Below the pieces are notes generated by a model. The model made no database searches and had not been told where the DNA came from. It worked only from the letters and a program-made list of their open reading frames with translations. 64,000 nt of DNA from Eledone cirrhosa (taxonomy: Eukaryota): contig OZ024745.1 in the NCBI GenBank assembly GCA_964016885.1, positions 88,660,001-88,724,000 of the forward strand, given 5' to 3'. The stretch's first letter is position 1. Each line of letters opens with the position of its first letter. Position numbers and translations under genes: made by a program. Below are positions 17,240 through 50,969 of the stretch, one piece after another.

Positions 17240-17875
<636 letters not shown>

Positions 17876-19361: not shown

Positions 19362-19366
<5 letters not shown>
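17876..19366. mobile_element. Retrozyme-like repeat of about 520 bp: about 1.8 tandem units on minus, then an inverted unit of about 1.1 on plus ending in (TA)n
   Basis: Repeat start at 17880 recurs at 18401; inversion point near 18812; one HHR per unit; no ORF. Confidence 0.8.
17923..17999 (-). ncRNA. Type I hammerhead ribozyme (further copies 18444-18519 minus, 19132-19198 plus)
   Basis: Minus strand reads ACTCC CTGATGA AGAAAGG...CCTTTCA GAAA CTAATTAG TT GGAGT, with a 5-bp stem I and palindromic stem III. Confidence 0.7.
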
Positions 19367-19441
<75 letters not shown>

Positions 19442-20829
19442 CGAAGGAAGTGTGGTAAGGAAGGAACAAGGTGGACCATAAGGTACCAGAGTACTCTATA
19501 CTTTGGGTAGTAGAGGGGGTAATAGGAAAAGAGTCAGAACTCAGACGGCAGAGCTCAAGCCGTTTCGATAACTATATATATATATAATATAGACATTTAT
19601 TTTACAGGACTAGAACTGTTTCATTCGGGAGAAATATATATATAATGCCTTACTTCATTGCTCTAGATCTCAGGCTTGAATACTTCTACCATGTCTGTAG
19701 ATAAATATGTGTCTATAAATACTTTTGGTTGAAAGCATGATGATTTCATAGGAGTAAAACTGCGTTAGTTGCATTTTCCTTTCCTACGAATTCTATGAAT
19801 ACAATCATCACATCATTTTCTCACCATTACAAAGTTGATCTCGGAACAGTTTGCACATATCTCCGCACACTTTCTATTTTTATCATGAGCAATCAGGCAA
19901 TTCTCATTGGACTAACTGTTTCTCTGTGAAGATGTCTAATTTGAAAGTAGACATAATCAGCACTAGTAACAATGAAAGTTCATTAACAAAACTACAATAA
20001 CAGTAATGCTGTTTGATTACTACCAATTAACAACGATAAGTTCATGAAATATATTTTCAGAGATCAAGAAAGATTAGAATGGAATAGAAAATGTAGGGAA
20101 AGCAAACATTTAGAGAAAGAAATTAAAATATAAACCCATAAAATGATAGCAGTTACCGCCTACTCAATTCTCCATTAAATTCACGATAATTACGTTACTC
20201 CATTTGTCATTCACAATATGTTAGTGTTTAGCCCCAGGTCAATACTGATTGTGCAGGCATTTTATCACAGCATTTCCTCTCATAATAATCACGTCCTTTT
20301 AAAGATGTCTAGGACTACATTAACTAAATATGTCCATTATTATTTTTTTTATTTTTGTAAGACGACTCACCTCACGTTTACTTAATTCTAAAACACATTA
20401 TATCAACTAAGTGGAGTTAAAGATAAATAAGTACATAGATAAAAAAAGAAAGACACGATAATTACGTGATCTTCAGATGGGAACATAAACCACGAATGCT
20501 CATTGGGGCTTTGGCACATTACAATTGGATACACATAAATATACAAGCAAAGCGCTATTTGGAGAATATATCTAAAGATGATTGATGCATTTTATGCTCT
20601 CACTTTCGTAACTGATGCATAATATGGAATCAGCTTTTGTGTCTAAGATATCGCAACAAGCAAACGAGGTTATAAAACAGGATATCACCATATAGAGACG
20701 AAAAGGATTTGTTACAGACAAATGCATATTCTATAATTCACAGTTTACCTATAGATACTTTATCACACGCAAATACTTGCATGCATCTAGCCCAGTCTTT
20801 GCTTCTCACTTTCTATATCCCTATCTATG

Positions 20830-20921
<92 letters not shown>

Positions 20922-20944
20922 ATGTGTGTGTGTGTGTGTGTATA

Positions 20945-21290
20945 TACATTACTATTTCAGAGCACCAATCCTAATTTTTTTATTTTTGCTGGACCGGTAA
21001 TCGCGCTGTATAATCAGTTCCTGATTATTACTGGAATTCTATAAGAATCCAGCCTCTATAATTTCCGGCAAAGGCGGGGAGTACGATGCTCTGAGGATCA
21101 CCAACAGCGTGAAACATAATCTGTCAGCTTCTCTCCCTTCCTTTGCCGAAAAAAGAAGTAAGTGACATAGTCACTACTTTAAAAATGATAGCGCAAGGTC
21201 TTCAAAATATTTTTAATCAAACATTTTCTGCCAAATAGATTATACATAAATTCATGTATACATCCCCATTTCAGAACACCAATCCTAATA
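20945..21290 (+). mobile_element. Retrozyme-like unit of about 315 bp (family E), about 1.1 copies, ending in (TA)n; HHR at 21088-21128
   Basis: ATTTCAGA(G/A)CACCAATCCTAAT at both ends. GCT CTGAGGA...GAAA CATAATCTG TC AGC. Confidence 0.72.
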
Positions 21291-21304
21291 TATATATATA
21301 TGTA

Positions 21305-21462
<158 letters not shown>

Positions 21463-21507
21463 TAACCGATTAAAGTTTAAATCTGTTATTTTAATATATA
21501 TATATAT

Positions 21508-21688
<181 letters not shown>

Positions 21689-21825
21689 TAAAATAACAGA
21701 TTAAAGATTAAATCTGTTATTTTAATAAATATTTGCTCTACGGTTCTTATATATTTGATATATATTTATCCTTATCGAGCCCTCTTTGGATTTTAGTATT
21801 CAAATTTATTATTATTACTATATAT

Positions 21826-22303
<478 letters not shown>

Positions 22304-23082
22304 AAAGAAAAAAAGAATAGTATTGTAACTTGCCGTTTTCATTCTGATATCAATCAATCAATCAATCAATTAGGTATCAATTAGTTTCTTGCTGTGGGAT
22401 CATGCATCACTACTATATAATATATTTCTTCCACGAAGATTTCCGCTTGCAAGGAATCGCTACGATTACCGAAGAAGCAGTGAGATTCTAGTAGATTGTG
22501 ATTTTGCTAAACATAATCGAGAATGGTATTACTATCATTTATAATCGACATTTAAAATCGAGAACATTGTCTGCGGCATTCGCTTTGTTATCATATAAGC
22601 AATTTATATAATCGGTTGAAAGACTCCCAGGTTTCCAGTCGTCGATGACTTCTTTAAACGTCTGATAGTTAATCTAAATGTTGTTGCTGTATAGAATTCA
22701 AACACATGTTATTCTCATCTGCGCTGTCTAAAGTAACGCTAGCTAGTGAATACTTCGACTAAATTTTAGAATATCGTTTATGAACGTCTGTTTGCAGAGG
22801 ATTGACAGAAATTTCAACTTAGAAAAGTGTATAGTTTCGCAAATTCTCTTCAAACTGTTTCCCTTCAAGTGTGACAGTCATTTAAGACTGCAGCAATACA
22901 TTGTATTTGTTATCACGTAAGAAACTATTTATTCCGCATCTTTAGATGCAGCTGTAAGTGCATCATATTTATGCAACTGTAAAGTGTATTATATTGAAAT
23001 TTAGAAGAGTCTTGGATATTGCTTTACTCTTCACTTCCTTATAAACGTGATAATTTTGTGCGTGGTATCTCGATGATGTATG

Positions 23083-24645
23083 TTCTCTGGTTTTATAATT
23101 TCACACATTTTTACCCATAGAGAGAGAGTCGGTTTCTAACATAGACATTCATTGGAATTTACACAACATCAACTAGGTAGATTATGTCTGCATGTCTGCA
23201 TGTTTATATATGGATGTTATTGTATGTGTGGATGTGGATGTTTTGAGTTGCATGTGTGCATGCGTATATGCTTTGTATCTGTACATGTGTATATGCAGTT
23301 ATTAGATGCAAAGTTTTTGTAATGTTTTACATATTTTTAGTGTTCCATTAATGGATTGTACTTGTAATTTCCTAACTAGTTTTTTTTCTTTCTGTTCCTG
23401 TGAAGCCTAGCTTCTGAAGTTTGTATTGAGGCAGTTACTAACATACCCCAGTCCCCCAATAATCACAGGCACAAATCTGAAGGTGTAATCAGGGTGGAGT
23501 ATCTGCAGATTTCTCATCAGTTCTGCATAAATATTCTCCTTTTCGCTAATCTTTCACATTATATTGGCATCTGCTGGGCAGCTAATTTCCACTACTGTGC
23601 ATGCTTTCTTCTCCCTGTCCCATATCATAATATTTGGTCTGTTATGCCTGCATTTTATTGGGGTTTTTACTGAAACATTCCACCAGTACTCTTTCATATT
23701 ATGTACGTGGATGTCTTCCCCATTGCTGTAGCTTTTAATGTGTTTATTATCGGGGCTATCTTTTTTACGAACTGCATTGTACAGTGTTTTGGCCACTACA
23801 TCATGCCTCATAGGTAGATAGTACCGCGATGACATCTTTGGACAGCTGCTGATGACATGGCTGATATCCGCGATGTTAGTTCTGCAGAGTCTGCACTTGT
23901 TATCACATCTAGGTATTTTGCATGCATCCCTATCTCTTTTGTGAATTAGGTATTTCGTGTTAAACCCCTGTTCTTGGATTGCAAAAGCGTATCCTCAAAG
24001 TGGGAGCCAATATAGCGGTTGTTGGTCCAAGATAAACTACTTTCCTTACTCTCACTCTGGAGCTTCCAGGCAACATATCCATGCATGATTTTTTGCTTAT
24101 AAGCATGCAGTTTTTCTTCCATGGATTCACTGCGATATTGCTGAGCGATTTATTTGGGTGTGAGTTTTTGATTATCACACAGGGAATATCTCTCGAGGAG
24201 TTCCTTCCCAACTCTCTTGATCTTATCTTTTTCATGCAGATAGACTTGCACGAGAAACGGGCTCCTACGCTTCGAGGTTCGTAGATGTCGGAGAGATATG
24301 ATGCGATATTCAAATGTTGTCTGGACTGATGTTAGGCCTCTGCGTCCCTGCTTACGTTTCAAGTAAAGGCGGTTTATGTCACTGTTGACGTGGAAGTTTC
24401 CGTTGTTGTTTAGTATTTTTCGAGTTCCAACATCAACTGCTCGGAGTTCGTCTATCGTCCAATTGAGTATTCTAAACGTTGGTGTTAGGACAGGCACAGC
24501 AAACACATTTTGAACCACCGTCTTGTTTTACGCGGAGAGTTCTGATGACCAGATCTTTCTTAATCGGGTCTAGTATTCCCTGGTTACAGATACCATTATA
24601 GGATATGTTCTGATTTATCCCCAGGTATCATTAGGAGTCCTCATA
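23083..24645 (-). mobile_element. 5'-truncated copy of the R4/Dong-like LINE
   Basis: High identity to 4626-5945. Zn knuckle CRLCRTNIADISHVISSC, RHDVVAKTLY and REL motif. Confidence 0.9.
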
Positions 24646-25294
24646 TGTATGTATGTATGTATGTAAATCAGCAAGAGGGCTCAAACGACATGCAGAAGTA
24701 CATGAACTCCAACCACAGCAGGCTATTCCCAGTGAATGTTTTGGTTGCCGACTCTGTGCAAGACATTTTAGATCATTGACTGGGCTAAAAAGTCACATTC
24801 GATCGCAGCGCTGTTAATTGCTATCGTGTGTGTGTGTGTGTATAGATATGTTTATGTGGGCGTGTGTGTATATATATGTATACTATTATTGTTGCTGTTG
24901 TCGCTATTATTATTGTTGTTATTATTATTATGATTGTTATTATTATGTTTTTTTGTTTTTTTTCTCGTGCAATGGCCATACTAGATAACGAGAGGCAGCC
25001 ATCATCATGTATGTATGTATGCATGTATGTATGTATGTATGTACGTATGTATGCATGTATATGTGTGTGTAAGTATGTATATGTGTGTTTGTGTATATAT
25101 GTATGCATGTATGTATGTGTGTGTGTAAGTATGTATGTATGTGTGTGTCTGTGTATAAATGTATGTATGTATGCGCTCATACTTAATTGTTTCTACTTTA
25201 ACATAATGTTTGTATATATGTCTGCATGCAAACATGTCTGTTTGTATGTGTATTTTAGTGTTAATAGTCACTTTTCGAATTGCGAATATTATAC

Positions 25295-25690
25295 ATTAAT
25301 AATTGTTTCTACTTTTGGCACAAGGCCAGCAATTTTCCCAGTGTATTACTGGTACTTTATTTTATCGACCCCGTAAGGATGAAAGGCAAAGTTAACCTTG
25401 GAGGGATTTGAACTCAGTCTGTAAAGGTACGTAATTGTGCTGTAAAGCGTGGCGTCCAACCCTCCACCGATACTGCCAATTCACCACCTTAATAATGGTT
25501 TCTGATTTAGGCACAAGGCCAACAACTTTGGGGAAAGGGCAAGTCGATTAAATCGACACCAGTGCATTACTGGTACTTTATTTTAATGATGAAAAGCAAA
25601 GATAACCTCGTCAGGATTTGAACTAGAGCGTAAAGAACCATAACTCTATGCCGCTAAACATGTTGTCCGACGCTCTACTGATCCTACCTA
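25295..25690 (-). mobile_element. Two adjacent tRNA-derived SINE copies (octopus-type)
   Basis: Minus-strand B-box (GA/TA)GTTCAAATCC, core CTTTGCCTTTCATCC...GGGTCGATAAAATAAAGTACCAGT, tail GCCTTGTGCC...AGAAAC. Confidence 0.8.
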
Positions 25691-31054: not shown

Positions 31055-31245
31055 TTGTGAATTGGCAGTATCGGTAGAGGGTCGGACATGCTTTCCAGCA
31101 TAGTCACGTCCCTTTACGATCTGAGTTCAAATCCGGCCGAAATTGACTTTGCCTTTCATCCTTACGGGGTCGATAAAATAAAGTACCAGTAATGTACTGG
31201 ATAATTGCTTGCCTTGTGCCTAAAATAGTGAAAAAAAAATTATTA
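31055..31245 (+). mobile_element. tRNA-derived SINE, same family
   Basis: CTGAGTTCAAATCC...GACTTTGCCTTTCATCCTTACGGGGTCGATAAAATAAAGTACCAGT. Confidence 0.82.
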
Positions 31246-31387
31246 AATTGTATTATTATTGAATTATAGAACATGAAGATGGCGAGAACAGAGTCGGATT
31301 CATTTAATTAACGATATTCATCATTAAGCACTTTACTTTATCATTAACATTTAATGACTTAGTTTAAGATAAAATAGTATGTGCGTG

Positions 31388-31430
<43 letters not shown>

Positions 31431-31479
31431 GTATATATGTATATGTATATATATATGTATATATGTATATATATATACA

Positions 31480-32690
31480 TATATGAAATATAGGAATCAA
31501 AGAACTGTTCAAAACATTATTGTGCTTACAGCTGTTTCCTCCAAACCGAGGTTTGGATTCTTCGGAGCAATTTATTAATGCATGGACAGTTATATGACCT
31601 CCTTTTCAGCCGAGAGACATACCAATACATATTCAAACATTGATACATATTCAAACATTGTGGGTCAACATTCATTACAGAATTTAGAGTGGCAGTACAC
31701 ACTTCGAGATTACATTTATATTAATAGGTACAATCAAAAATCAAAGATATAGGTTAAAGTACAACATGAAGATAAGTGGTTATATAGTGCAAATGTTATA
31801 TGTGTGGCACGCATGTGCGTCTTGTTTATATAATGGCGTCTCTCGAAACGTAACAACCTCCTGTATCGAACTAAAGAACACCAGACTACGATCTCTAACT
31901 GGATTGTCGTGGATTATGTGAAAGGCATATAATCGAAATATACACTCCCTTGACCATGAAAATGCCGAAGTACATGAATTACTTGACATCCCTGCGCTGT
32001 GCATCTCCAATACTTATAACACTTTTAATGCTTGCACTATCTTTAATGCTTATAATATTTCTCCACACACAGACTATATCAATCATATAAAGACTTTGCC
32101 ACCAGATCTACCAACCTAACACTCTTATTTACCTACCTAAGTGCCTCTACCACACATATCTCTCTGCCACACTATATAAACAAGACGCACATGCGTGCCA
32201 CACATATAACATTTGCACTATATAACCACTTATCTTCATGTTGTACTTTAACCTATATCTTTGATTTTTGATTGTACCTATTAATATAAATGTAATCTCG
32301 AAGTGTGTACTGCCACTCTAAATTATGTAATGAATGTTGACCCACAATGTTTGAATATGTATCAATGTTTGAATATGTATTGGTATGTCTCTCGGCTGAA
32401 AAGGAGGTCATATAACTGTCCATGCATTAATAAATTGCTCCGAAGAATCCAAACCTCGGTTTGGAGGAAACAGCTGTAAGCACAATAATGTTTTGAACAG
32501 TTCTTTGATTCTTATATTTCATATAACTGCTCTGTAAATCATCTGATGTTTTTACATTGAGCTACTTAACTTACTGGTAATAAGGTAGTAATACATTACT
32601 GCCTACCACTATTTAGGGTGTGTGTAAAATACTTACAACTGCTTAAGGTTTTGTGTTTACATAACCATAAATAGTATAACTAATACTATA
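31480..32690. mobile_element. Head-to-head PLE 3'-end palindrome in (TA)n (arms 31480-31832 and 32173-32525)
   Basis: About 350-bp near-identical inverted arms, each carrying an HHR. Confidence 0.88.
32436..32482 (+). ncRNA. Type I hammerhead ribozyme with CCGAAGA core (mirror copy 31523-31569 minus)
   Basis: TGCT CCGAAGA ATCCAAACC-TC-GGTTTGGAG GAAA CAGCTG TA AGCA. Confidence 0.72.
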
Positions 32691-32856
32691 TACATATATA
32701 TATGTGTATTATGTATATATGTATATAGCATGTGTGTGTATATATAAATATATATACAAATATATATATGTATATATACATATATACATATATACATATA
32801 TACATGTATATATATATATGTATATATATATATGTATATATACATATATATGTATA

Positions 32857-32905
<49 letters not shown>

Positions 32906-32947
32906 GTATATATGTATATATGTATGTATATATATATATATATATAT

Positions 32948-35388
32948 ATTTCGTTTCTGAATTTGTTTAGCAAGATTCTTTATCTGAAATCGTGTATTGA
33001 AACCGATATTGTTCTACTTTGGGAGGGTCATGTTGCCAATAAGAAACACCGCACCAGTTGCTTTCACTTCAATTTATTATAGTAAATTTATATTAAATTT
33101 ATAAATTTATAAATTTCTGGTTGGTTGGTTCCACAACCAGATAGTTGTTTATATATAGTCATAGTTCTTTCGTCACACACACTGTGACCTCTTCAGTGAC
33201 TGGGGATTCCTTTCTTTGTTTCTGTGCCTCTCCTTTGTTCTGTCCTACGCCATTTTGTTTCTGTGTGTGTGTTGTGTGCTCAGTCTGCGCATGCGCCACA
33301 TCTGGGTGTCTGTGTGTGTTTATGTTCATTTATTTATTTGTTTATTTACATGTTACTGGTTGGTTGTTTGTTCTATGTGTGTGTGTTTTTTCATTTTGTC
33401 CTTAATTGTAAGTTGTGATGTTGCTGTTCCACTCATATTTTCTATTTAATTTTGGTTGTAATTCTTTTATGTTTATTGCCTCTGTGATTTGTCTAAACAT
33501 TGCGTCTTTTCTGTGTGTAGATTCTATTTTTATTTCTATGTTCTCTAATTTACCCTTGTGTTCTATTTTAGCATGTTGGTAGAGTACAGATGATTCTTTA
33601 TTATCTTGAAGGTCTCGCCAGTGTTCATTTATCCATTCCCCTACACTACGAGCTGTCTCACGTATGTACACTATATTTTTGGCTCTACATTGTCCTTCAG
33701 TACATCTTATGCTATACACTACATTTCTAGTTTTACAGTTAATATGGGGGCTTATTTTACAGGTTATACATTTCTTATCTATACATGAAGGTCTTTGAAA
33801 AGGGTATGTCTTGCTAATAAGTGTTTTTACGGAGGTACCTGGTCTTTCTACTATCTTAATATTGAGTTTATGTTTATTTAGGGCCCTTCTGAATTTGTAA
33901 GCTAATTCACATCTAGGGGTTGTATCGGTGAACATTACACTCTGGTATTTATTGCTATCATACCATGAGTTTATTCTATTAGCCTTGTTCCTAATTCTTT
34001 CTATTCTATTCCAAAATTTGCTGCTATACAAGGGGCAGGTCCCATTTATGTCATTATTTACCATTTTTCCCATCTGGGAAACAAATCCTCCAATCCTCTG
34101 TTCCCATTATGCCAAACCCATGACTTCCAAACATCTGATCCACCGAAACTCGGCCGTTTCGGACCATACCAACATCAACTTACTGATTGCGGATTTGGTA
34201 CGGGTGATGAGAAATGTGTCCCGCATGTGCAATCCCGAAGAACTAGAGAGACACATACAACACTTCATCCACCGTATGCAGTTCTCTGGCTACAATCAGA
34301 GAGATAACATCAGAGTGTATAGAGGAGCCAGAACCAAATGGGAAAAAATGGTAAATAATGACATAAACGGGACCTGCCCCTTGTATAGGAGCAAATTTTG
34401 GAATAGAATAGAAAGAACTAGGAACAAGGCTAATAGAATAAACTCATGGTATGATAGCAAAAAATAACAGAGTGTAATGTTCACCGATACAACCCCTAGA
34501 GTTGAATTAGCTTACAAATTTAGAAGCGCCCTAAATAAACATAAACTCAATATTAAGATAGTAGAAAGACCAGGTACCTCCGTAAAAACACTTATTAGCA
34601 AGACATACCCTTTTCAAATACCCTCATCTATAGATAAGAAATGTATAACCTGTAAAATAAGCCCCCATATTAACTGTAAAACTAGAAATATAGTGTATAG
34701 CATAAGATGTACTGAAGGGCAATGTAGAGACAAAAATATAGTGTACATAGATGTGACAGCTCGTAGTGTAGGGGAACGGATAAATGAACACTGGCGAGAC
34801 CTTCAAGACAATAAAGAATCATCTGTACTCTACCAACATGCTAAAATAGCACACAAGGGTAAATTAGAGAACATAGAAATAAAAATAGAATCTACACACA
34901 GAAAAGACGCAATGTTTAGACAAATCACAGAGGCAATAAACATAAAAGAATTACAACCAAAATTAAATAGAAAATATGAGTGGACAGCAACATCACAACT
35001 TACAATTAGGGACAAAATGAAAACACACATAGAACAAACAACCAACCAGTAACATGTAAATAAACAAATAAATAAATGAACATAAACACACACAGACACC
35101 CGGATGTGGCGCATGCGCAGACTTAGCATACAACACACACACAGAAAGAAAATGGCGTAGGACAGAACAAAGGAGAGGCACAGAAACAAAGAAAGAAATC
35201 CCCAGTCACTGAAGAGGTCACAGAGTTTGTGACGAAAGAACTATGACTATATATAAACAACTATCTGGTTGTGGAACCAACCAGAAATTTATAAATTTAT
35301 AAATTTATTATAAATTTACTATAATAAATTGAAGTGAAAGCAACTGGTGCGTGTGTTTCTTATTGGCAACATGACCTTCCCAAAGTAT

Positions 35389-35396
<8 letters not shown>
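32948..35396. mobile_element. PLE family A: two 5'-truncated copies head-to-head (32948-34053 minus, 34054-35396 plus)
   Basis: GIY-YIG domain NVVYSIRC...YI(G)ETARS...RINEH...RQITEAINI...LNRKYEW with Cys-rich linker. Both outer ends lie in (TA)n. Confidence 0.92.
35204..35248 (+). ncRNA. Minimal type I HHR in the family A 3' region (also 33157-33201 minus, 50702-50745 plus, 58510-58553 minus, 61588-61631 plus)
   Basis: AGTCA CTGAAGA GGTCACA-GAGTT-TGTGAC GAAA GAAC TA TGACT. Confidence 0.8.
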
Positions 35397-35451
<55 letters not shown>

Positions 35452-35471
35452 TTGTTATATAGTAAGGTGCA

Positions 35472-35514
<43 letters not shown>

Positions 35515-35523
<9 letters not shown>

Positions 35524-38500
35524 TTGTTATATAGTAAGGTGCATTATTGGTTGTGTAAAATGATCCAATAACTTTATGTTACCAATATTAAGTTGTTCAC
35601 GCTTTTGTATATCTCCAATTTCATTCAAGGGAACAGCTAGATGACGTAAAAAGGAGTATAAGTATCAACATGAAAATCCGAAGGCAAGTTAAAATTCCAG
35701 TCATTTAATCACGACACATGTTTCGATAAGAGATAGATCAATTGTGAAGCCATGATCGATTATCACTTATCTCAAATTCTTGATATGAAGGAGAGAAAGT
35801 AACGATGTTCTCTCACAGAATTCATTCCCTCATATGGAGACACACCAGTCAGAAATACGGCGACTGCTATTAGCTTCAGTCGAGGTATTACAAGTTTTCA
35901 GATTTCTATCGCTGCAAAAGGCGCTGGACATCAATCAAATCTGTAGGGATACACTCAGTCACCGTTAATGTGAGTGGGTACACACACATTCCACACCCAC
36001 ATACACCGGCTAGAGGTCTAAGAAAAATATATACATATAAATACACACATCAACACAGTATTAAACCTGTAGAGTTAGTGTGGGTGGGTACACACACACT
36101 TTCACACACACCGAAACGATGTCCGAGAAAAAACAAATATAAGAAAACAAATATAATAAAACAAATATAAGAATGTACCAACACAGCACTCACCGAAAGT
36201 TAGTTCACAAAGCAACAGAAGCTATATTGGTCAAATCTCAATTTGGCGATGTAAATTGGAAATATTGGGTTAACCAACGCCCCACACATACACAGACACA
36301 CACACGCAAGTAAGTTCAGTTCAGTGTTCTGCTATACGTGTATAGATCGAATTGTAACATCCATATCTTCAACTGTATGTTATGGTATATACACATCAGA
36401 ATCGTCCAACAAATGGTATGTACGGGTATATACACATCCATGTGAAGAGCAGGCAATCAGCTCATGTCGAACTCAGTATGTACCGCCGTCACATTGAGAA
36501 TCCGAGTCACCAAATCTGTGCGTGCAAGCAACCGCAATGTACGCCAGCAAAGGGCTCCATGTAGGGTTGGGTATTGGATAAATGCGTCCGCAAGTGCGAT
36601 TTCCCGTCATAAGGGCCAATGAGCTTTTAAGATTGTTGTTTGAGTGGTGGAGGTGTGTTATCCAACACAGAAGGTGAAATAAAAAATCACAGGATAGTAA
36701 AATCCAAAGGATGTGTTTAGGCCCATTAATGGTGTGTCAGTATTATTGTTCAATCCGTAACAGTGAGTCCTCCATGCTTAGATGATCACGGATCAAAACC
36801 TGGTGTAGTGTTCAGTCGGTAGGAACGTGACAGTCGTAATTGTGGGAGCTCAATGTCTAAAGGAAACGGGTAGTGTGTGTAGAGTTATGTATATAGAGAG
36901 TAATCTGTCCTAACTAAGTGTGTAGTCAATCTAACTATTTACTAGCTAGGTATTCTAAAAAAGAGCACTCAGCTGTGAGAAATCCGTGGAAACAAGCCGA
37001 GTATCGTTTGTAAGTACGCAAACAATCTTAGCCGTCTAACTACCTAAGTTTGTGACTGTCTGTTTATTGAGAGAACTCTATGGCTAAAGTAGAGAAGGAG
37101 GAGTTAGTGGTAGGTTACCTTCCAAAAATCCTGCGGAAGGTTTTCGAGGTTCTATGTTGGCAGTTGCTGAAAAAATCTGCTCTCCTATTAATTAATAGGG
37201 GGCCGTCTCTAATAATATTAAAAGTTTCAGCTATGCATAAATTGCAGACACCAGTGCTGCTGTAATAAGATTGGGCTGAGGAAACTATGGACCAGGATAA
37301 GCAGTGCTCTATATTCTGATGTTTAAGCTTCCAGACTAATTCCGAAAGTGCCGTGCTATTTTCTTTATCTAATGTATTAAAGGTATAGCGGTGATTATAC
37401 CATCTATCCTTAAATTCCGTGGCAGTTGCCCCAACATACCTAAAGGTTCTATCAGGAGTGGAGACCTTACAGTCGTAGACTATGTTTTTGGTAAGGCATT
37501 TCCCAGCCATGGGGCAGGTGGCGGTGCTTCTGCAGTTACATTTTTTGCTATCGACCTGGGTAGTTCCAGATGGACCACGGTACCTTTGGGGTCGGGTCTC
37601 AGTTCCAGTCTGCTCTATGGGTAAATTCCCTGGGGTTTGGGAGACCCGACTCGCCTCACATGTATGAGTCAGTTCCTCAATAGAGCTGCCATTGTTCCTG
37701 CCATGCCTAATTCCCTCATGGGCTGTCCTAAGTCTACTATAATTCATCTTAGCTATATTCTGAGCTATGTTACTAGTTGTGGAGTAGGACAGCTTGATGG
37801 TATTTCTATTGAATATTTTATAATATCTGTGCGATCTAGGGAAGCATTTGTCTAAGGCCCTAAAGTAAAGCTTAGCTATACTAGTGGTCAGGCCAGTGGA
37901 GTAAGGGGGCTTATACCACAGGTCTTTTCTGGTCCAATGCGTCCTGTTCCTACTAACTATATGAGAATTACCTGTCTCCCTATTAGTTACTGGTCTATTG
38001 TAACTGTAAATTGCCTGTGGATCGATGGCGTTCTGCGGTGTCACGATTGTGTTCGGAATCGTCCCAAATCTCCAGGGTGGTGTACCCCACGTGCGGCCAT
38101 TGGGACCACCCTCGATAGCATGAGTTGTATCCACTATGCGTCTGCTACACCTGCCCCTTTCCCCTTACTCGACCCTCGTTCCATACTGCGTTCAACGGTA
38201 GTTTTATCGGTTCCACAATTAAGGTTACTATTAGAGTTTCCGCTGGCGTTACGTTGCTCAGACCCAGTGTTAGTACCTAGGAAGTTGTTTCTATTGGTAC
38301 CAACAGCATCGGGACTAGGCGGCAATACAACATGAATTCTATATAAATCCTCCCTCGTATCACGCCTGCTGTTAACTAGAGTGTCACTATTTAGGTGTAA
38401 GCTATCGCAGGCAATGTTGCTTCTACTATTTAATGGACATTTGAATGAGATTCCCTCGTTATGCCCCGCGCGTTCCAGGGCGCTATTATAGTAATTCGAG

Positions 38501-40400
38501 ATCTTATTAAAGGTATCTTCATTTGAAGATTGTCCTGAAATTCTACTAGAGACGCTTTTGGTAATACCGTTAGTGACTGTTCTAGGGTGGTTCGATTTTG
38601 CGTTGACATAATTTAGATTCTCGTTGGGTTTTTGGTAAGGTTGGAATAGTCCTGAATTGAGGTTAAGTGTAACATCTAGAAAATTAACTATCTTTAAATT
38701 CTCTTCAAATACTATACTTAGGTCTATGTTCTTGAAAAATTTTGCTAAGTTTTTTCCTCACCCTCTCTACCATACTATTATTATGGAACGACACAGTAAA
38801 CAAGATGTCATCTCGGTAAGCGCCGCCCCCCAGGTGGAGCATTTCGGGTCCGAGACAGTCGAGGAGGTAAAGGCCCACCAGATCCGTCACCTGGGCCGAG
38901 TCCGTGGATCCAATGGTGATGTCGGAATTGTATGGCCAATCCTTCCTGGTCCACATGTCATCGTTGAATTTAGCTAGGAGAATAATGATAATTTCCTCGG
39001 ATGTAAGGTCGGTGTGTAAGCTAGCAAAGTTAAGGACCCTACCTAAAAGATTTGGGGAGATTGAAGAGTAGTAATTAGAGATATCGAACTGTATAAAATT
39101 AGTCCTATTCTTATTCTGCGATTTCTCAAACCAGTTAAATACCTCACTAGTTCCTGACCACTGCTTGAGCTTCGATCTCCTAACTAGAGTAGGGATTATT
39201 TTATCAAGGATGTTTTTACTTACGATTCCTATGTCCGACTTCGAACGGGCTTAATGATTCAAAGTCCAATTTGTTGTCCTTGAGCAAAATCCTCGGTGTT
39301 CTAGGATGGAAGGGTTCAGTTTTATCCTCAATACCCACTTCATTTATGACGTTATTGGCCTCAGTGTTAATTAAATCCAGGTTGGCCCGTGTAGTTTTTC
39401 TGTAGCTTTTCTAAGTTCTCTACTTATCAAATCATCATAAGTTACTCTATCCATATCGTACAGGTTGTTAGTCTTGTCTGTGTGCACCAAAATGCCGGTC
39501 GAGTTCTTTAATTTTACTAGATCACCATTTAGTTGTCTCAGGTAGCTTTTTCTCCTGAGTGTGTTTTTTCCTAAACTTAAGGTTGGACACTATGTTAGAC
39601 ATTTCAGTCTCGAATTCTTATTTATTGTGGTGGATTTGTTCTGGATTTGAATATTTCCTCGATGCCGCGCGTTCCCTCTCCGGGGTGGTTTGTTGGTGTT
39701 CCTCTGTCGAAGTGGAAGGCTTTCCAACGCATTCTACGGACAAAGGAATCCGATTTACCTATGGCCAACCTTGAAAATTCTTTTATGTTGAGCAAAGGGA
39801 TGTCCTTAAGTGAAGAGTTCACCTGAGAATTTCTCCATCATATTCCTTGCTTAACAGCATTAAGAGCTCAACAAAAATAGGAGCTTTAAGTTCTTATATA
39901 GTAAGGTGCATTATTGGTTATGTAAAATGGTCTAATAACTTTATGTTAGCAATATTAAGTTCTCCACGCTTTTTTATATCTCCAATTCCATTCAAGGGAC
40001 CAGCTAGATGAAGTAAAACTGAGAGTAAGTATGAAAATGAAAATCGGAAGGCAAGGTAAAATTCCAATCATTTAGTCACGACACATTTTCAATAAGAGAT
40101 AGATCGATTGTGAAGCCATCGATTATCACTGATCTCATCAGGTGAAAATGAATTGTCTTCAAATTCTTGATATGAGGGAGAAAAAATAACGATATCCTCT
40201 CACAGAATTCATTCCCTCATATGGAGACACACCAGTCAGAAATACGGCGACTGCTATTAGCTTCAGTTGAGGTCATACAATTTTCAGATTTCTATCGCTG
40301 CAAAAGACGCTGGACATCAATCAAATCTGTAGGGATACAGTCAGTCAGCGTTAATGTGAGTGGGTACACACACATTCCACACCCACATACACTGACTCGG
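35515..40400 (-). mobile_element. PLE family B (Naiad-like), full ORF region (about 39842-37115, disrupted) with upstream pseudo-LTR repeat
   Basis: SLKDIP...RRMRWKA, DKT, AYRDD, WYKPPYS, CNCx5Cx5C, IVY...YVG and CNLC...CQH. The 3' region is repeated at 39895-40400. Confidence 0.9.
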
Positions 40401-40429
40401 GGTCAAATAATTCTCGAGGTCAAAGAATT

Positions 40430-43400
40430 CTTGGATTCTCAATGGTACGGCGGTACATACTGAGTTCGACATGAGCTGATTGATTGCTCTTCACATGGAT
40501 GTGTATATACCCGTACATACCATTTTTGGACGATTCGGATGTGTATATACCATAATATACACTTGAAGATGTTACAATTCGATCTATACAGGTATAGCAG
40601 AACACTGAACTGAACTTACTTGCGCGTGTGTGTGTGTGTGTGTATGTGTGGGGCGTTGGTTAACCCAATATTTCCAATTTACATCGTCAAATTGAGATTC
40701 GACCGATATACGATTGGAGATATACAAAAGCGTGGAGAACTTAATATTGCTAACACAAAGTTATTGGAACATTTTACACAACCAATAATGTACCTTACTA
40801 TATAACAACTTAAAGCTCCTATTTTTGTTGAGCACTTAATGCTGTTAAGCAATGAATATGATGTAGAAATTCTCGGTGAACTCTTCACTTAAGGACATCC
40901 CTTTGCCCAACATAAAAGAATTCACAATGTTGGCCATAGGTAAATCAGATTCCTTTGTCCGTAGAATGCGTTGGAAGGCTATCCACTTCGACAGAGGAAC
41001 ACCAACAAACCACCCCAGGGAGGGAACGCGCGGCATCGAGGAAATGTTCAAATCCAGAACAAATCCACCACACAATAAAAACTTGGAAGAATTCGAGACT
41101 GAAATGTCTAACATAGTGTCCAAACTTAAGTTTAGGAAAAACCCACTCAGGAGAAAAAGCTACCTGAAACGACTAAATGGTGATCTAATAAAATTAAAGA
41201 ACTCGACCGGCATTTTGGTGCACGCAGACAAGACTAACAACATGTACGATATGGATTGAGTAACTTATGATGAGTTGATAACTAGAGAACTTAGGAAAAG
41301 CTACAGAAAAACTACACGGGCCAACCTGGATTTAATAAACACAGAGGCCAATAGCGTCATGATTAAACTGGGTATTGAGGATAAAACCGAACCCTTCCAT
41401 CCTAGAACACCGAGGATTTTGCTGAAGGACCACAAATAGGACTTTGAATCATTAGGACCTGTCAGGCTGATAGCCCCTTCGAAGTCGGACATAGGAATCG
41501 TAAGTAAAAACATCCTTGATAAAATAATCCCCACTCTAGTTAGGAGATCGAAGCTCAAGTAGTGGTCAGGAACTAATGAGGTAATTAACTGGTTTGAGAA
41601 ATCGCAGAATAAGAATAGCACTAAGTTTATAGAGTACGATATCTCTAATTACTACTCTTCAATCTCTCCAACTCTTTTAGGTAGGGTCCTTAACTTTGCT
41701 AGCTTACACACCGACCTTACATCCGAGGAAATTAGCGTTATTCTCCTAGCTAGGAAATCCTTAATTAAATTCAACGGTGACTTGTGGACCAGGAAGGATA
41801 GGCCATACAATTTCGACATCACCATGGGATCCACGGACTTGGCCCAGGTGACGGATCTGGTGGGCCTTTACCTCCTTGACTGTCTTGGAGCGGAAATGCC
41901 CCACCTGGGAGGCGGCGCTTACCGAGATGACATCTTGTTTACTGTGTCGTTCCATAATAATAGTATGGTAGAGAGGGTGAGGAAAAAACTTAGCAAATTC
42001 TTCAAGAACATAGATCTAAGTATAGTATTTGAAGAGAATTTAAAGATAGTTAATTTTCTAGATGTTACACTTAACCTCAATTCAGGACTCTTCCAACCTT
42101 ACCACAAACCAAACGAGAATCTAAACTATGTCAACGCAAAATCGAACCACCCTTGAATAGTCACTAACGGTATTACCAAAAGCGTCTTAATAAAATTTCA
42201 GGACTATCTTCCAATGAAGATACCTTTAATAAGATCTCGAATTACTATAATAACGCCCTGGAACGCGCGGGGCATAGCGAGGGAATCTCATTCAAATGTC
42301 CATTAAATAGTAGGAGCAACATTGCCTGCGATAGATTAGACCTAAATAGTGACACTCTAGTTAACAGCAGGCGTGATACGAGGGAGGATTTATATTGTCT
42401 TCGTGTTGTACTGACGCCTAGTCCCAATGCTGTTGGTACCAAAAGAAACAACCACCTAGGTACTAACACTGGGTCTGATCAACGTAACGCCAGCGGAAAC
42501 TCTAATGGTAACCTTAATTGTGGAACCGATAAAACTACCGTTGAATGCAGTATGGAACGAGGGTCGAGTAAGGGGAATAGGGACAGGTGTAGCAGACGCA
42601 TAGAGGATACAACCCCGGCTATCAAGGGTTGTCCCAATGGCCGCACGTGGGGTACACTGCCCTAGAGACTTGGGACGATTCCGAACACAATCGTGACACC
42701 CCAGGGCACCATCGACCCACAGGCAATTTCAACTTACAATAGACCAGTAACTACTAGGGAGACAGATCATTCTAATATAGTTAGTAGGAACAGGAGGCAA
42801 CGTACCAGAAAAGTCATGTGGTATAAGCCCCCTTACTCCACTGGCCTGACCACTACTATAGCTAAGCTTATCTTTAGGGCCTTAGACAAATGCTTCCCTA
42901 GATCGCACAGATATTATAAAATATTCAATAGAAATACCATCAAGCTGTCCTACTCCACAACTAGTAACATAGCTCAGAATATAGCTAAGATGAATTATAG
43001 TAGACTTAGGACAGCCCATGAGGGAATTAGGCACGGTAGGAACAATGGCAGCTCTATTGAGGAACTGACTCATACATGTGAGGCGGGCCGTATCTCCCCA
43101 ACCCCAGGGAATTTACCCATAGAGCAGACTGGAACTGAGACCCGACCCCAATGGTACCGTGGTCCATCTGGAACTACCCAGGTCGATAGCAAAAAATATA
43201 ACTGCAGAAGCACCGCCACCTGCCCCATGGCTGGGAAATGCCTTACCAAAAACATAGTCTACGACTGTAAGGTCTCCACTCCTGATAGAACCTTTAGGTA
43301 TGTGGGGCAACTGCCACGGAATTTAAGGATAGATGGTATAATCACCGCCATACCTTTAATAGATTAGATAAAAAAAATAGCACGGCACTTTCGAAATTAG

Positions 43401-45047
43401 TCTGGAAGCTTAAACATCAGAATATAGAGCACTGCTTATCCTGGTCCATAATTTGCTCAGCCCAACCTTATAACGGCAGCACTGGCGTCTGCAATTTATG
43501 TATAGCTGAAACCTTTAATATTATTACAGGCGGCCCCCTATTAATTAATAGGAGAGCATATTTTTTCAGCAACTGCCAACATAGAACCTCGAAAATCTTC
43601 CGCAGGATTTTTGGAAGGTAACCTACCACTAACTCCTCCATCTCTACTTTAGCCATAGAGTTCTCTCAATAAACAGACAGTTACAAACTTAGGTAGTTAG
43701 ACGGCTATGATTGTTTGCGTACTTACAAACGATACTCGGCCTGTTTCCACGGATTTCTCACAGCTGAGTGCTCTTTTTTAGAATACCTAGCTATTAAATA
43801 GTTAGATTGACTACACACTTAGTTAGGACAGATTACGCTCTATATACATAACTCTACACACACTACCCGTTTCCTTTAGACATTGAGCTCCCACAATTAC
43901 GACTGTCACGTTCTTACCGACTGAACACTACACCAGGTTTTGATCCGTGATCATCTAAGCATGGAGGACTCACTGTTACGGATTGAACAATAATACTGAC
44001 ACACCATTAATGGGCCTACACACATCCTTTGGATTTTACTATGATGTGTTAGATAACACACTTTCTGTGTTAGATAACACACCTCCACCACTCAAACAAC
44101 AATCTTAAAAGCTCTGTGGCCCATATGACGGGAAATCGCACTTGCGGACGCATTTACCCAATACCCAACCCTACATGGGGCCCATTGCTGGCTTACATTG
44201 CGGTTGCTTGCACGCACAGATTTGGTGACTCGGATTCTCAATGGGATGGCGGTACATACCCGTACATACCATTTTTTGGACGATTCGGATGTGTATATAC
44301 CATAACATACACTTGAAGATATGGATGTTACAATTCGATCTATACACGTATAGCAGAACACTGAACTGAACTTACTTGCGTGTGTGTGTGTGTGTGGGGG
44401 GGGGGGGGGGGTTAACCCAATATTTCCAATGTACCTCGCCAAATTGAGATTTGACCAATATAGCTTCTGTTGCTTTGTGAACTAACTTTCGGTGAGTGCT
44501 GTGTTGGTACATTCTTATATTTGTTTTATTATATTTGTTTTCTTATATTTATAGTTTCTCGGACATCGCTTCGGTGTGTGTGAAAGTGTGTGTGTACCCA
44601 CCCACACTAACTCTACAGGTTTAATACTGTGTTGATGTGTGTATATATATGTATATATTTTTCTTTGACCTCGAGCCGGTGTATGTGGGTGTGGAATGTG
44701 TGTGCACCCACTCACATTAACGCTGACTTACTGTATTCCTACAGATTTGATTGATGTACAGCGTCTTTTGCAGCGATAGAAATCTGAAAACTTGTAATAC
44801 CTCAACTGAAGCTAATAGCAGTGGCCGTGTTTCTGACTGATCTCTCTCTCCATATGAGGGAATGAATTCTGTGAGAGAACATCGTTATTTTTTCTCCCTC
44901 ATATCAAGAATTGGAAGACAGTTCATTTTCACCTGATGAGATCAGTGATAATTGATCATGGCTTCACAATCTATCTATCTCTTATTGAAACATGTGTCGT
45001 GATTAAATGATTGGAATTTACCTAGCCTTTCGGATTTTCATTTTGAT
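40430..45047 (+). mobile_element. PLE family B second copy (ORF about 40858-43621, disrupted), divergent from the first
   Basis: Same motifs on plus; long 3' UTR with HHR; ends at TATATA near 45047. Confidence 0.9.
44929..45002 (+). ncRNA. Type I HHR with extended stem II (also 40076-40145 minus; core-deleted copy 35708-35773 minus)
   Basis: TCAC CTGATGA GAT(A/C)AG...CTTAT(C/T) GAAA CATGTG TC GTGA. The copy at 35.7 kb shows a perfect GATAAG/CTTATC stem II. Confidence 0.75.
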
Positions 45048-45950
45048 ATATATAATATATGTAGAAATAAACACAGTAAATTGTGTGTCTAAAATTACAA
45101 GGGTTGAAATACCACATTGGTTTGATAAATTTAACCTGAAGCAAACGGAAAATATAGAGTAGATATACAGACCATCTCAATAACTATTTCATCTCTCGGA
45201 CAGATTAGATATTTAATCAGTTTCGCCTTGAAATTTGTGTTTGTAACAGATAATCCGTAGGCTTTCCTCAGCGAGAGATAAGATCAAATAGAACAAACAC
45301 ATACATCTAAAAGTCACACGAGTGAATATCTCACTTCGTGCGATGGACGTTAGAAGTGGTGTGAGTGCATATGCTAAAAACAATAGCCTTAATACACCCA
45401 ACTTATAAGCTCACCTATTTAGTGGCCGAAATACTTTGAGCTTGTTAATTGCAGGGTATCAATATGAGTTAGTAACTCTGTATTTTATTTGTATTTCGGC
45501 TTCCTAACTAGGTGAGCTTATAAGTTGGGTGTATTAAGGCTATTGTTTTTGGCATATCCACTCTCACCACTTCTAACGTCCAGCGCATGAGGTGAGATAT
45601 TCACTCGTGTGACTTTTAGTTGTATGTGTTTGTTCCATTTAATCTTATCTCTCGCTGAGGAAAGCCTACGGATTATCTGTTTCAAACACAAATTTCAAGG
45701 CGAAACAGATTAAATATCTAATCTGTCCGAGAGATGAAATAGTTATTGAGACGGTCTGTATATCTGCTCTATATTTTCCGTTTGCTTCAGGTTAAACTTA
45801 TCAAACCAATGTGGTATTTCAACCCTCGTAATTTTAGACACACAATTTACTGTATTTATTTCTACATATATTATTATATATTGCGCCGTATTTATACTTT
45901 GAGGTGGTAATTACAGGGTATCAGTATGCGTTAGTAACTCTGTATTTTAT
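45048..45950. mobile_element. Retrozyme-like unit of about 463 bp (plus, about 1.1 copies, 45431-45950) with an inverted partial copy (45048-45434)
   Basis: ATACTTTGAG...GTAACTCTGTATTTTAT repeated at 45431 and 45894; inverted arms of about 390 bp. Confidence 0.85.
45647..45735 (+). ncRNA. Complete type I hammerhead ribozyme (mirror copy 45191-45279 minus)
   Basis: ATCTCTCG CTGAGGA AAGCCT...AGGC GAAA CAGATTA-AATATC-TAATCTG TC CGAGAGAT. Stem I is 8 bp, stem III is 7 bp, and the cleavage triplet is GUC. Confidence 0.85.
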
Positions 45951-45953
45951 GTG

Positions 45954-45985
<32 letters not shown>

Positions 45986-47266: not shown

Positions 47267-47304
<38 letters not shown>

Positions 47305-47307
<3 letters not shown>

Positions 47308-47482
47308 TGTTTCATTCTTTAGAAATCATCAGGAATTTCCTGAGATTCCTGATGATTTCTAAATCATAAAGAATGAAACAGTTCTAGTCCTGTAGAATCG
47401 CATCTATATTAAAACCGTTATACTCTGCTATGTATTGAGTACCTTACTTACTGTGGTTACCTCCGATTCAACCCGGAATAAC
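47305..47482. mobile_element. Tiny head-to-head HHR-bearing insertion in (TA)n (family F; relatives at 15063-15125 plus and 19585-19635 minus)
   Basis: CTGTTTCATTCTTTAGAAATCATCAGGAA inverted against TTC CTGATGA TTTCT...AGAAT GAAA CAGTTCTAG TC CTGT. Confidence 0.75.
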
Positions 47483-47521
<39 letters not shown>

Positions 47522-47525
<4 letters not shown>

Positions 47526-49585
47526 AAACTGGAACGGGAACAAAAACAGACAGGCACTACGAACAAAGGTTTATTAGTTTCACGCACTTGAGAGTGGGGG
47601 GTGGGGGAGGACGTTTTGGGCATAAGCCCTTCTTCAGGAGAAAAGTGGGTGGGAAGAGAGTTCCGAGGGTGTGTTGGGGAGTGGTGGAGAGACATTTAGA
47701 AAAAAGAGGGGGGGACGGGGGAAGGGGTACAAATAAAAATAAAAATAAAAATAAACATAAAGATAAACAAGTGGCGGAAGGGTGTGGGGTGTGTAGGGGT
47801 GGTGGCGGGTCGAGTAGGGAGAGGGAGGCGGTTTACCGAACCGAGAGGCCTGAAGTTGGTGTTTGTGTATGTGTGTAGATGTACGTGTGTGTGTATGTGA
47901 ATATGAGAGTTGGGGAAAGAACGAGGTTCCATGTTCTGGAAAAGGTGTGTGTGTGGGGTGGGGTGTGTTTGGGGAGGGGTCAGAGGGGTGGGGAGGGGGT
48001 AGTATTGCGGAGGCTGAGTGTGTATATGTGGGGGTACGCACGTGTGTGTTGTTGTTTATACGTGGTGTCGATGAATGTGGCGGGGTTCGAAAAAAATTGT
48101 GGGTGTATGTATTTCCGTGGGTAAGTTCCTAAGTTAGTTTCGTCGAGTGTGGGATGAGGTGCCGGATATTTTTTATGTTATGGAGTGGATAGCTGGAACG
48201 ATTAACGGTTGTGTGTAATCCGTTGGTTGTGGTGGTCGGTAGTGGGGAGATGTGGGGTGCGCGCGCAACAGGAAGTGGTCATAGGGTCAAGGCAGGATGA
48301 AGGCATAGCAGTAGAGGAGAATGACAGGTGGAGAAAGTCAGTGTGTGGTGAGGACTGTGTGTCTGTGTGTGCAGAGGTGCGGTGGACAGGGTAGAGGATG
48401 GGTTGGTGTGAAAGATGGAGTGTAGAGGGGGTAATGTGGGGGGTGGGGTGGATAGGGTGTGTATTAGTAGATGTGTTGGTCGGATGTGTGTGGAGTGGGG
48501 ATAGGGAGAGCAAGAGAAAAGGTGTGGGTTCGAGGGATGGAGTGTAGTGTACTGGTGTATATGTGCATGTTTGGATGCGTGTGTGTGGTATAGGGGGTGT
48601 TAGTGGGTGTTAGTATACTGGTGGTGGGGAATGTGTTGAAAGCGGGTGTGTTGGGGGGTTAGTGGTAGATGGGTGTGTAGTGTGGGTGGTGTATGTAGGT
48701 GTGTGGGAAGATGTGTTTTCGTGTGCGTGGGGTCGGGGAGATGTTAATGGTATTAGTTGTGGGGTGGTAGGAGTGGATGTGAGGGTGAGGGTTAGTGGTG
48801 GTAGTAGGGTGTGTGGATAGTGTAAGTGCGTGTACAGGTGGGTGGGTGCGTGTTAGGGGGAGAGGTGGGGATGTTAGTATCGTTAGTTATTGGGTGGGCC
48901 AGGGGGTGGGCGGTGAAAAGGAGGCGTGTGTTGTGGTGTTAGTGGTGTTAGTGGGGGATATGTATGTAGGGGGGAGGGCACAGGGTGGTCGAAGGCTAAA
49001 GGAATAGGGGTGGGTAGTTCAGGGCAGGGGGAGTGGGGCTCTGTAGGGTGAAGATGGTGCGTTGTTCGACCGTGAGGCGGGTGGCGGGTGTTCGATGGCA
49101 ATGGAGTAGGCCACCGACTGTGAGGTGGTGGGGCGGAATGTCCAGGGGAGCCAAAGTGGCGGGCGATGGGGGAACTCCCGCCGAGACTAATATCCCGGAG
49201 GTATTCAGTGAAACGGGCCGCCAGGCGACGTCCAGTCTGTCCGACGTAGGCTGCGCTGCACACGGTGCAGCGAAGTCCATAGACTAGGTTGGAGGAGGTG
49301 CAGCGGAAGGCGTGCCGGACAGAGAGAGAGTGGTCGTTGGGACCCTGGAAGGTGGTGGTGGTGTTGGTGATGTGGGGAAAGGTGTGGCAACGAGGCCTGG
49401 AGCAAGGAAGGGAACGGGGTGGAGTAAGAAGAGCGTGGGTTGGGGTAGGGAGCTGCGGACGAGAAAGGTGCGGAGATTGCGTGCGCGTTTGAAAAAGGGG
49501 AGGAGTGAGGATGGGAAGATGTGGGAGGTGGAGGGGTCGGACTGGAGGTGTCGGAAGAGGCGGCGGGTGGTAGGATGGAGGGGTG
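47522..49585 (-). mobile_element. PLE family C (Neptune-like), 5'-truncated: GIY-YIG domain, long C-rich 3' UTR and HHR at 47609-47642
   Basis: FKRARNLRTFLVRSSL, PCSRPRC, CTSSNLVYGLRCTVCSAAYVGQTGRRLAARF and PIARHF. HHR-like CTGAAGA AGGGC-TTAT-GCCC (A)AAA CG TC. 3' end joined to (TA)n. Confidence 0.88.
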
Positions 49586-49868
49586 GATATATATATACAT
49601 ATATAAGACAGTATATATAGAAAAATACACAAAGAGGTATGTGTTCAATTATAGGGGATAGATTATCACCAGAGTGAAAAACATATTGTTTAGGAAAGTG
49701 ATGGAGAATACATATCAATTTAAAGAATAAATTAAAATGCACAAACTATCCTTTTATAGATATAACACCTGGACTAACTCGAATAAGAGAATGTTTAGCC
49801 ATAAAAAGTGAAGATTCCATATTGCAGAGGGCTTAATAACATCTCATTGTATTTTTGTTTCCGTTTAC

Positions 49869-50958
<1,090 letters not shown>

Positions 50959-50969
50959 ATATATATATA

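Follow-up and report, generated by a model that had tools for sequence, protein, structure and literature searches.

How inverted copies of one retroelement come to have unequal outer ends is the question raised by this locus, within the window (the whole stretch of 64,000 nucleotides of Eledone cirrhosa DNA that was analysed). The window is repeat-rich animal DNA with numerous (TA)n tracts, and its self-comparison reveals many head-to-head inverted insertions whose outer ends adjoin (TA)n. One family, called A here, has five copies with two 3' end sites 58 nt apart, three copies being long and two short. The long ends, CAGAAACGAAAT followed by (AT)n, lie at 32948 (minus strand), 50958, and 61842, and the short ends, AACAATAT followed by (AT)n, at 35396 and 58357 (minus strand). 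A preliminary description had placed all five ends at these positions, and they stand; the extension, which it put at about 55 nt, measures 58 nt with its terminal AT and 56 nt without it. Among the three long copies, this tail is 93-96% identical over 57 nt. As had been described, the palindromes at 32948-35396 and 58357-61842 each combine one long with one short end. Sequence beyond the long end is shown by no family A copy in the window, and a protein search for a continuation of the tail peptide returned nothing.

Judged by its anatomy, family A is an endonuclease-bearing (EN+) Penelope-like retroelement (PLE), and the difference between long and short ends is very probably the optional 'tail' known from such elements. 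Its coding order is the 3' part of the reverse transcriptase (RT), a C-x4-C-x2-C linker, GIY-YIG, and then the terminal region, that is, RT followed by a C-terminal GIY-YIG in a single ORF, as in EN+ PLEs. The 383-aa frame (Table 1) carries YSRYVDD plus IYIG/ETAR-type motifs, and a CCHH motif was located by eye in the translated GIY-YIG core, with two Cys inside the split motif and two His downstream. The Pfam match to GIY-YIG (E=4.8e-4, 20.8 bits) falls under the 22.6 cutoff. Twenty longer relatives of the protein were found, down to E=8e-130, and RVT_1 and GIY-YIG hits are weak in these; the atlas neighbours carry PF26215 and, in some cases, PF01541. The closest named protein, labelled Octopus vulgaris, is 64% identical, and a comparison of one relative with solved structures gave no match. 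Like EN+ PLEs, family A shows 5' truncation, an inverted arm, and an optional tail at one end.

The linker was detected by regular expression in family A and in 16 of the 20 relatives. In the available text of PMC8557442, a CX2-5CxxC linker upstream of GIY-YIG defines Neptune/Nematis-type clades; family A has this feature in common with them, the comparison being one of the linker motif, and no clade is claimed. Membership of Naiad/Chlamys (N-terminal GIY-YIG, no hammerhead) was rejected, as family A has its endonuclease at the C-terminus and carries a hammerhead motif. The window contains no full-length copy of family A, and an internal copy of the tail is directly visible in family B. The 28-codon frame that runs through the family A tail may represent the ORF start repeated in the pLTR; homology between this frame and the N-termini of the relatives was not detected, and BLASTP against one relative was not significant.

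Table 1. Positions, strands, and ends of the insertions and motifs found in the window.
Feature	Positions	Strand	Remarks
Family A palindrome 1, left arm	32948-34077	-	3' ORF part, pLTR, tail; long end 32948; 95.7% inverted match to 34334-35396
Family A 58-nt tail, palindrome 1	32948-33005	-	
Family A palindrome 1, right arm	34092-35396	+	short end 35396; stop near 34465 breaks ORF
Family A solo copy	49975-50958	+	5'-truncated; flanked by two (TA)n tracts; long end; tail 50901-50958
Family A palindrome 2, left arm	58357-59950	-	short end
383-aa open frame in this arm	58750-59901	-	RT motif YSRYVDD to GIY-YIG
Family A palindrome 2, right arm	59951-61842	+	long end; 72-nt insertion at 60646-60717
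28-codon open frame from ATG	61759-61842	+	spans short site and entire tail (61785-61842)
Type I hammerhead-like motif, family A	35204-35248	+	core CTGAAGA at 35209, bulged stem II, GAAA; helix I by eye
Same motif, other family A copies	33196(-), 58548(-), 61593(+)		degenerate near 50706
Family B palindromic PLE	35522-45054		long end near 35522; tail 35523-35655; short end near 45049
Family C palindrome	45046-45958		short end near 45052; long end near 45954-45958; tail 45882-45953
Family E palindrome	31480-32690		arms 99% identical; short 31480, long near 32690; tail 32526-32686 single-copy
Family H palindrome	63583-63969		long 63583, short 63968; tail 63584-63723 single-copy
Family G insertion 1	50972-53043		2-kb minus arm ends at short site; 78-nt plus arm 52966-53042 purely tail
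Family G mini-palindrome	21681-21819		short + long; joins short-site sequence to tail
Family G mini-palindrome	21451-21500		short + short
Family D tandem/inverted 520-bp unit	17872-19368		hammerhead-like core; ends 115 nt apart in unit coordinates
Family F mini-palindrome	47306-47484		hammerhead-like core; short 47307 / long 47484
Palindrome K	15189-15512		old; ~63-nt one-sided extension reaching (TA)n tract; tail single-copy
Palindrome L	15859-16618		one-sided extension 60 or 102 nt; tail single-copy
Palindrome with centre (TC)n(TA)n(GA)n	17280-17874		15-nt one-sided extension
M, possible further asymmetric unit	53201-53420		extension may be host

Unequal ends recur in other families. The four other pairs listed in the preliminary description are all asymmetric, by about 165 nt (31480/32690), 141 nt (63583/63968), 72 nt (45048/45950), and 133 nt (35515/45047); in the last, the position 35515 had to be moved, the true long end being near 35522. 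Further units of the same kind lie at 50972-53043, 21681-21819, 17872-19368, 47306-47484, 15189-15512, 15859-16618, and 17280-17874. Tail lengths are 58 nt in A, about 72 in C, about 84 in G, 115 in D, about 133 in B, and, for two single-copy tails, 141 in H and about 165 in E. A second copy of the tail exists in the window for families A, B, C, D, and G; for example, the tail of B also occurs internally at 39894-40018 (minus) and 40713-40809 (plus), and that of C partially at 45446-45488. The internal copies in B, C, and D continue beyond the long end, which places this end inside the repeat unit. For E, H, K, L, and most of F, the tail is single-copy. Such extensions (e.g., 32526-32686 and 63584-63723) are probably element DNA, since they run up to a (TA)n tract, which is rare by position: looking in a given direction, one meets a (TA)5 tract within 65-165 nt from only 5-10% of the positions in the window. 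The left end of family D adjoins another repeat, not (TA)n. The short units of C, D, and F resemble non-autonomous PLE derivatives.

The insertions are frequently chained. The palindromes E, A, B, and C are contiguous at 31388-45962 with TA tracts alone between them, the short ends of B and C having one 9-nt AT run in common (45046-45054), and similar chains occupy 47269-53483 and 57815-62148. At 35400-35547, a 72-bp segment made of (TA)n and the terminal 27 nt of the tail of family B is duplicated in tandem; it was counted once and could be local slippage, an assembly error, or an abortive long-site insertion. The palindrome at 17280-17874 joins the family D short end directly on its right side, with no TA tract between. 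Family I, a unit of about 310 bp in tandem with an internal AT run, appears at 20941-22330 and 57905-58345 in inverted arrangements with nested insertions. A single-armed, 5'-truncated PLE-like copy at 47522-49586 has a GIY-YIG frame (48883-49644, minus), a very G/T-skewed 3' region, and, at 47637, a hammerhead-like core some 116 nt from the end of the copy. The insertion at 60646-60717 has a flanking duplication of about 17 nt, resembles by eye the repeats at 25288-25484 and 31057-31256, and is presumably SINE-like. Other mobile DNA includes degenerate LINE ORFs at 11591-13664 and 54975-57325, in which Pfam matches mark AP-endonuclease-like and RVT_1 regions (E 5e-30 and 3e-22), decayed non-LTR fragments at 599-1325, 4618-6191, and 23076-24587, two of which are 88%-identical copies of one family, and, at 7411-9893, a unit of about 0.5-1 kb that is present three times in tandem, contains a 37-bp minisatellite, and looks Helitron-like. 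The ORF of family B (37115-39250 and 40867-43367) contains a long low-complexity insert between the RT and endonuclease regions, which recalls the N-rich inserts of rotifer PLEs described in the available part of PMC3846280.

The claim that each palindrome pairs a long with a short end describes most units, although the one at 21451-21500 is short at both ends. Among palindromes with multi-copy tails, seven of eight are long plus short (p=0.035 against 50:50), a count that includes D, a tandem whose short end has no TA flank. The test of non-random pairing, suggested earlier and run here on the window, thus succeeds across families but not in family A alone, where the observed pairing arises in 4 of the 10 ways of distributing three long and two short ends (p=0.4). 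Altogether, 14 of the 15 units examined are asymmetric and none is long plus long, with the reservation that single-copy tails make asymmetry uninformative; family I was left out because of its orientation. Solo copies of both end types exist.

The two arms of a palindrome are closely related. In family A, their divergence is 2.0% and 3.7% within palindromes and 4.1-6.2% between them, and 22 of 22 informative sites group the arms by insertion; the arms of one palindrome have one source per event or were homogenised later. At 32948-35396, the two arms differ in extent: about 240 nt of upstream ORF occur in the short arm only, and the tail in the long arm only; the extra short-arm sequence may stem from a later central deletion. 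At 50972-53043, the tail arm begins 6 nt past the point where the 2-kb arm stops, the two being adjacent, inverted, and non-overlapping, so that neither was copied from the other. In the majority of the remaining units, the long arm contains the entire short arm, with overlaps of hundreds to thousands of bases, a geometry that fits copy-back and twin priming with displacement alike. Assignment of the central spacer to the long arm as a general rule was discarded: it holds for family A palindrome 2 and for C, and fails for family A palindrome 1 and the first family G insertion.

The endpoints had also been said to fall on internal AT/TATA words. This was assessed at the 13 distinct sites for which the continuation of the element is known, a set that does not contain the family A long end. 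The alternating A/T run common to element and flank is 4 nt at the A short end, 3 at B short, 1 at B long, 3 and 3 in C, 4 at D long, 1, 4, and 3 at three G short sites, 1 at F short, 5 at E short, 4 at H short, and 6 at L short. The overlap with the (TA)n flank therefore reaches at least 3 nt at 10 of 13 sites, against 1.8 expected for a random cut and phase (p<1e-5) and 4.7 under the best phase within 25 nt (p=0.002); the remaining three sites overlap by 1 nt. The same threshold is reached at 7 of 9 sites with multi-copy tails (p 4e-5 to 0.02), at 5 of 7 when family G is counted once by its weakest site (p 5e-4 to 0.057), and at 2 of 3 long ends (p 0.03 to 0.22). The short ends of family G spread over about 10 nt. 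The bias toward TA words is thus real, not absolute, and the overlap is compatible with primer pairing, endonuclease preference, or repair joining.

The junction test relies on counts of overlaps of at least 3 nt, not on sums, and automated values are inexact at several sites: B long and E short were miscalled at imperfect flanks, the third G site was given 8 for a true 3, and F was read on a wrong diagonal, its value being 1 either way; the counts stay the same when these errors are corrected. The long ends of A, E, F, G, and H (continuation unknown), the short ends of D and J (no TA beside them), K (CA flank), M (possibly host), family I, an E relative at 17035-17199, and diverged F relatives at 15064-15127 and 19587-19634 were omitted. 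These tiny F relatives show a third, intermediate end position near a TATATT word. Family E has a 12-nt repeat on both sides that may be a target duplication; it sits in degenerate TA sequence and was not used.

A mechanism in which reverse transcription is primed at two internal sites, probably of the same RNA, by two nicks in (TA)n is judged somewhat likelier to be right than wrong as a whole. PLEs would insert into (TA)n tracts from a template RNA extending beyond the 3' pLTR into a second copy of the 5' region, to which the element protein would bind, starting reverse transcription at a short site (S) or a long site (L). Opposite-strand nicks in the (TA)n tract would prime S and L in one event, most simply on one RNA. 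The L-primed cDNA would then either stop at S or displace the S-primed cDNA, and, once the two cDNA 3' ends were joined centrally, the product would be a head-to-head palindrome bearing a single tail. The (TA)n primer would pair with a TA word over 3-6 nt, which would adjust the exact start without defining the site. Two discrete ends, a tail that continues the pLTR, arms from one source, and the TA-word bias are seen in the window; two primed sites, and nicking and extension of strands in vitro, are known for another PLE, Poseidon_Ac (PAc) of Anolis carolinensis, and would apply here by analogy.

This mechanism is favoured by ends that are discrete and identical to the base in independent insertions, by tail copies that are internal (B, C, D) or present twice or more (A, G), by the pairing counts and the absence of long-plus-long units, by the arm-grouping sites together with the unique sequence on each arm of 32948-35396, and by the TA overlaps and the non-overlapping arms of 50972-53043. 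The PAc work, as far as the available text of PMC11167929 goes, adds cleavage and extension of both strands, two internal starts, and a predicted dimer. It is weakened by small counts from a single window, the three sites with a 1-nt overlap, the short-plus-short palindrome, the solo copies of both types, and the nested short arms, which cDNA fold-back explains equally well; moreover, the starts of PAc are reported to be non-homologous to the target and to show no difference between top and bottom strands, so that no published result forces the assignment of primers to S and L. Internal initiation by microhomology, as first proposed, hence keeps its internal starts (two discrete sites, and a published PLE in vitro) and its frequent overlaps, but pairing is not required. 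The suggestion of two primers on one transcript agrees with the heterotypic pairing, the shared variants, and 50972-53043; nevertheless, arms overlap in most palindromes, and this requires strand displacement, a second RNA, or cDNA fold-back.

Fold-back alone is a possible but unlikely account: priming would occur once, at the long site, and the cDNA would fold back, copy itself, stop at the short site, and join (TA)n by microhomology. Near-perfect centres and short arms nested in H, C, F, the second G unit, K, and family A palindrome 2 agree with it, it explains the single tail per palindrome, the common variants, and the TA words at short ends, and self-priming has been proposed for rotifer PLEs from palindromic junctions (available part of PMC3846280). 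It cannot, however, yield the arms without overlap at 50972-53043, nor 32948-35396 in the absence of a later deletion, and both sites serve as RT starts in vitro according to the accessible sections of PMC11167929. Rather improbable is a resolution of a DNA transposition intermediate by staggered endonuclease cuts, with TA ends reflecting endonuclease preference instead of primer pairing. The accessible text of PMC8557442 suggests endonuclease resolution for the tail, the enzyme prefers AT-rich DNA (PMC11167929, same sections), and the measured junction overlaps would look identical under this model; yet the later in vitro work locates the tail ends at RT starts on RNA (PMC11167929, likewise), and family-specific staggers of 58-165 nt would be hard to fit to one cut geometry.

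The hammerhead-like motifs of the pLTRs bear on a further alternative. The minimal type I motif occurs in four of the five family A copies and is degenerate in the fifth. A strict scan without a bulge missed family A; allowing the bulge published for minimal hammerheads (described in the available text of PMC4209133) recovered it, with 6 hits in the window against 0.44 in shuffles. An Rfam scan returned no hammerhead, only microsatellite-driven miRNA matches under gathering scores. An origin of the two ends as true 3' termini of separate RNA isoforms, made by processing or ribozyme cleavage and copied from the end as in LINEs, would suit these motifs and the anole RNA-seq read ends that coincide with the start sites (available part of PMC11167929), but is very unlikely: in family A, the short end lies 188-192 nt and the long end 249-250 nt downstream of the core, so that cleavage there would remove both, ribozyme mutants left PAc insertion unchanged (PMC11167929, same part), and heterotypic pairing would go unexplained. 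On this distance, an origin of the ends by hammerhead cleavage was rejected. Palindromes beside microsatellites are unstable, which, together with the single-copy tails of E, H, K, L, and most of F, is what speaks for the least credible account, namely a tail lost later from one of two long arms (by deletion from a TA word to (TA)n), or host DNA and assembly errors; the same short end in independent copies despite other nearby TA words, the lack of long-plus-long units even with arms 99% identical, the multi-copy tails of A, B, C, D, and G, and single-copy tails that reach a (TA)n tract, as 5-10% of positions do, stand against it.

Measured from the first base of the core, the long end lies 249-250 nt away in A, 252 in B, 251 in E, and 249 in H, four families with no clear mutual sequence similarity (best local z 3.2). 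Elsewhere the distance is 232 nt in D, 300 in C, 136 in F, 203 in K, 155 in G (variant core), and about 430 or more in L (doubtful core). That 4 of 10 families fall within 4 nt has a probability of 0.0008 to 0.03 depending on the null, in a post hoc comparison in which two of the four matching families have single-copy tails and from which PAc departs, and the spacing of about 250 nt is offered as a lead. No hairpin common to the long ends was found; A and B fold weakly, and the others strongly. A stronger form of the two-nick mechanism, doubtful as it stands, would make obligate twin priming of a single RNA the origin of PLE palindromes, with the long site set by a ruler of about 250 nt from the hammerhead core; the trailing RT would displace the leading cDNA, or stop there as at 50972-53043. 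If true, one mechanism would account for tail, inverted arm, and microsatellite targeting, and the ruler would give the ribozyme a structural, not a catalytic, role.

PLEs are the closest relatives of telomerase RT, and for the making of their inverted arms and tails the window constitutes a test bed, with about ten families side by side. In the available text of PMC11167929, the second-strand steps are left unvalidated. The long and short ends are real, the phenomenon is already known as the PLE tail, and the families described here are new members; the preliminary description had rediscovered this tail, and its published explanation, without recognising it. What is added here is longer tails, the bias of ends toward short TA words, the geometry of 50972-53043, and the spacing of about 250 nt. 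TA-word bias at tail ends, pairing statistics, and a fixed ribozyme spacing found no report in titles and abstract openings of a mostly open-access literature, the primary papers of 2004-2006 aside. Heterotypic pairing, TA-word overlap, and hammerhead-to-long-end spacing are predictions that can be carried genome-wide, and tails 2-4 times the textbook length matter for consensus boundaries.

Among known systems, L1 twin priming also uses two target primers per event and leaves an inverted 5' part through internal priming by short pairing; its arms are adjacent and non-overlapping, with the first primer on the poly(A) end and a variable second site. Such geometry is found in one of the 15 units (50972-53043, with a 6-nt gap), whereas the arms of the other 14 overlap, usually extensively, and both sites are fixed and internal here. 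The short tandem units of C, D, and F with their hammerhead-like cores are similar to non-LTR retrozymes, which, in the available text of bioRxiv 10.64898/2026.07.22.740005, form long head-to-tail arrays, in contrast to the inverted, tailed insertions of these families.

PAc, too, has two tail-defining ends, AT-rich targets, and a pLTR hammerhead. According to the accessible parts of PMC11167929, its protein nicks and extends both strands in vitro without homology to the cleaved DNA, its RT has two internal start sites that equal the genomic tail ends, and its hammerhead is not needed for insertion. It starts in an AC-rich stem-loop described as non-homologous to the target, whereas most testable ends here overlap (TA)n by 3-6 nt; it needs only the first 172 nt of the ORF and starts less than about 180 nt from the ribozyme core, compared with 250 nt here; and it belongs to the Penelope/Poseidon clade, whereas family A has the Neptune/Nematis-type linker.

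A close counterpart is the tail of EN+ PLEs (PMC3846280, PMC8557442, and PMC8969392, each in its available part), likewise an optional 3' extension on one of two inverted pLTRs, in elements with a 5'-truncated inverted arm, (TA)n targets, and a pLTR whose ORF start, as may also be the case in family A, is extended by the tail. For example, the 31-bp tail of Pen2a_Av, optional on one inverted pLTR, extends the ORF start from 12 to 22 codons (PMC3846280), compared with a putative extension from about 9 to 28 codons in family A. Published PLE tails measure 30-40 bp, often at one end only, with (TA)n targeting in several clades (PMC8557442); this length is typical, not defining, and the tails of 58-165 nt described here extend the known phenomenon.
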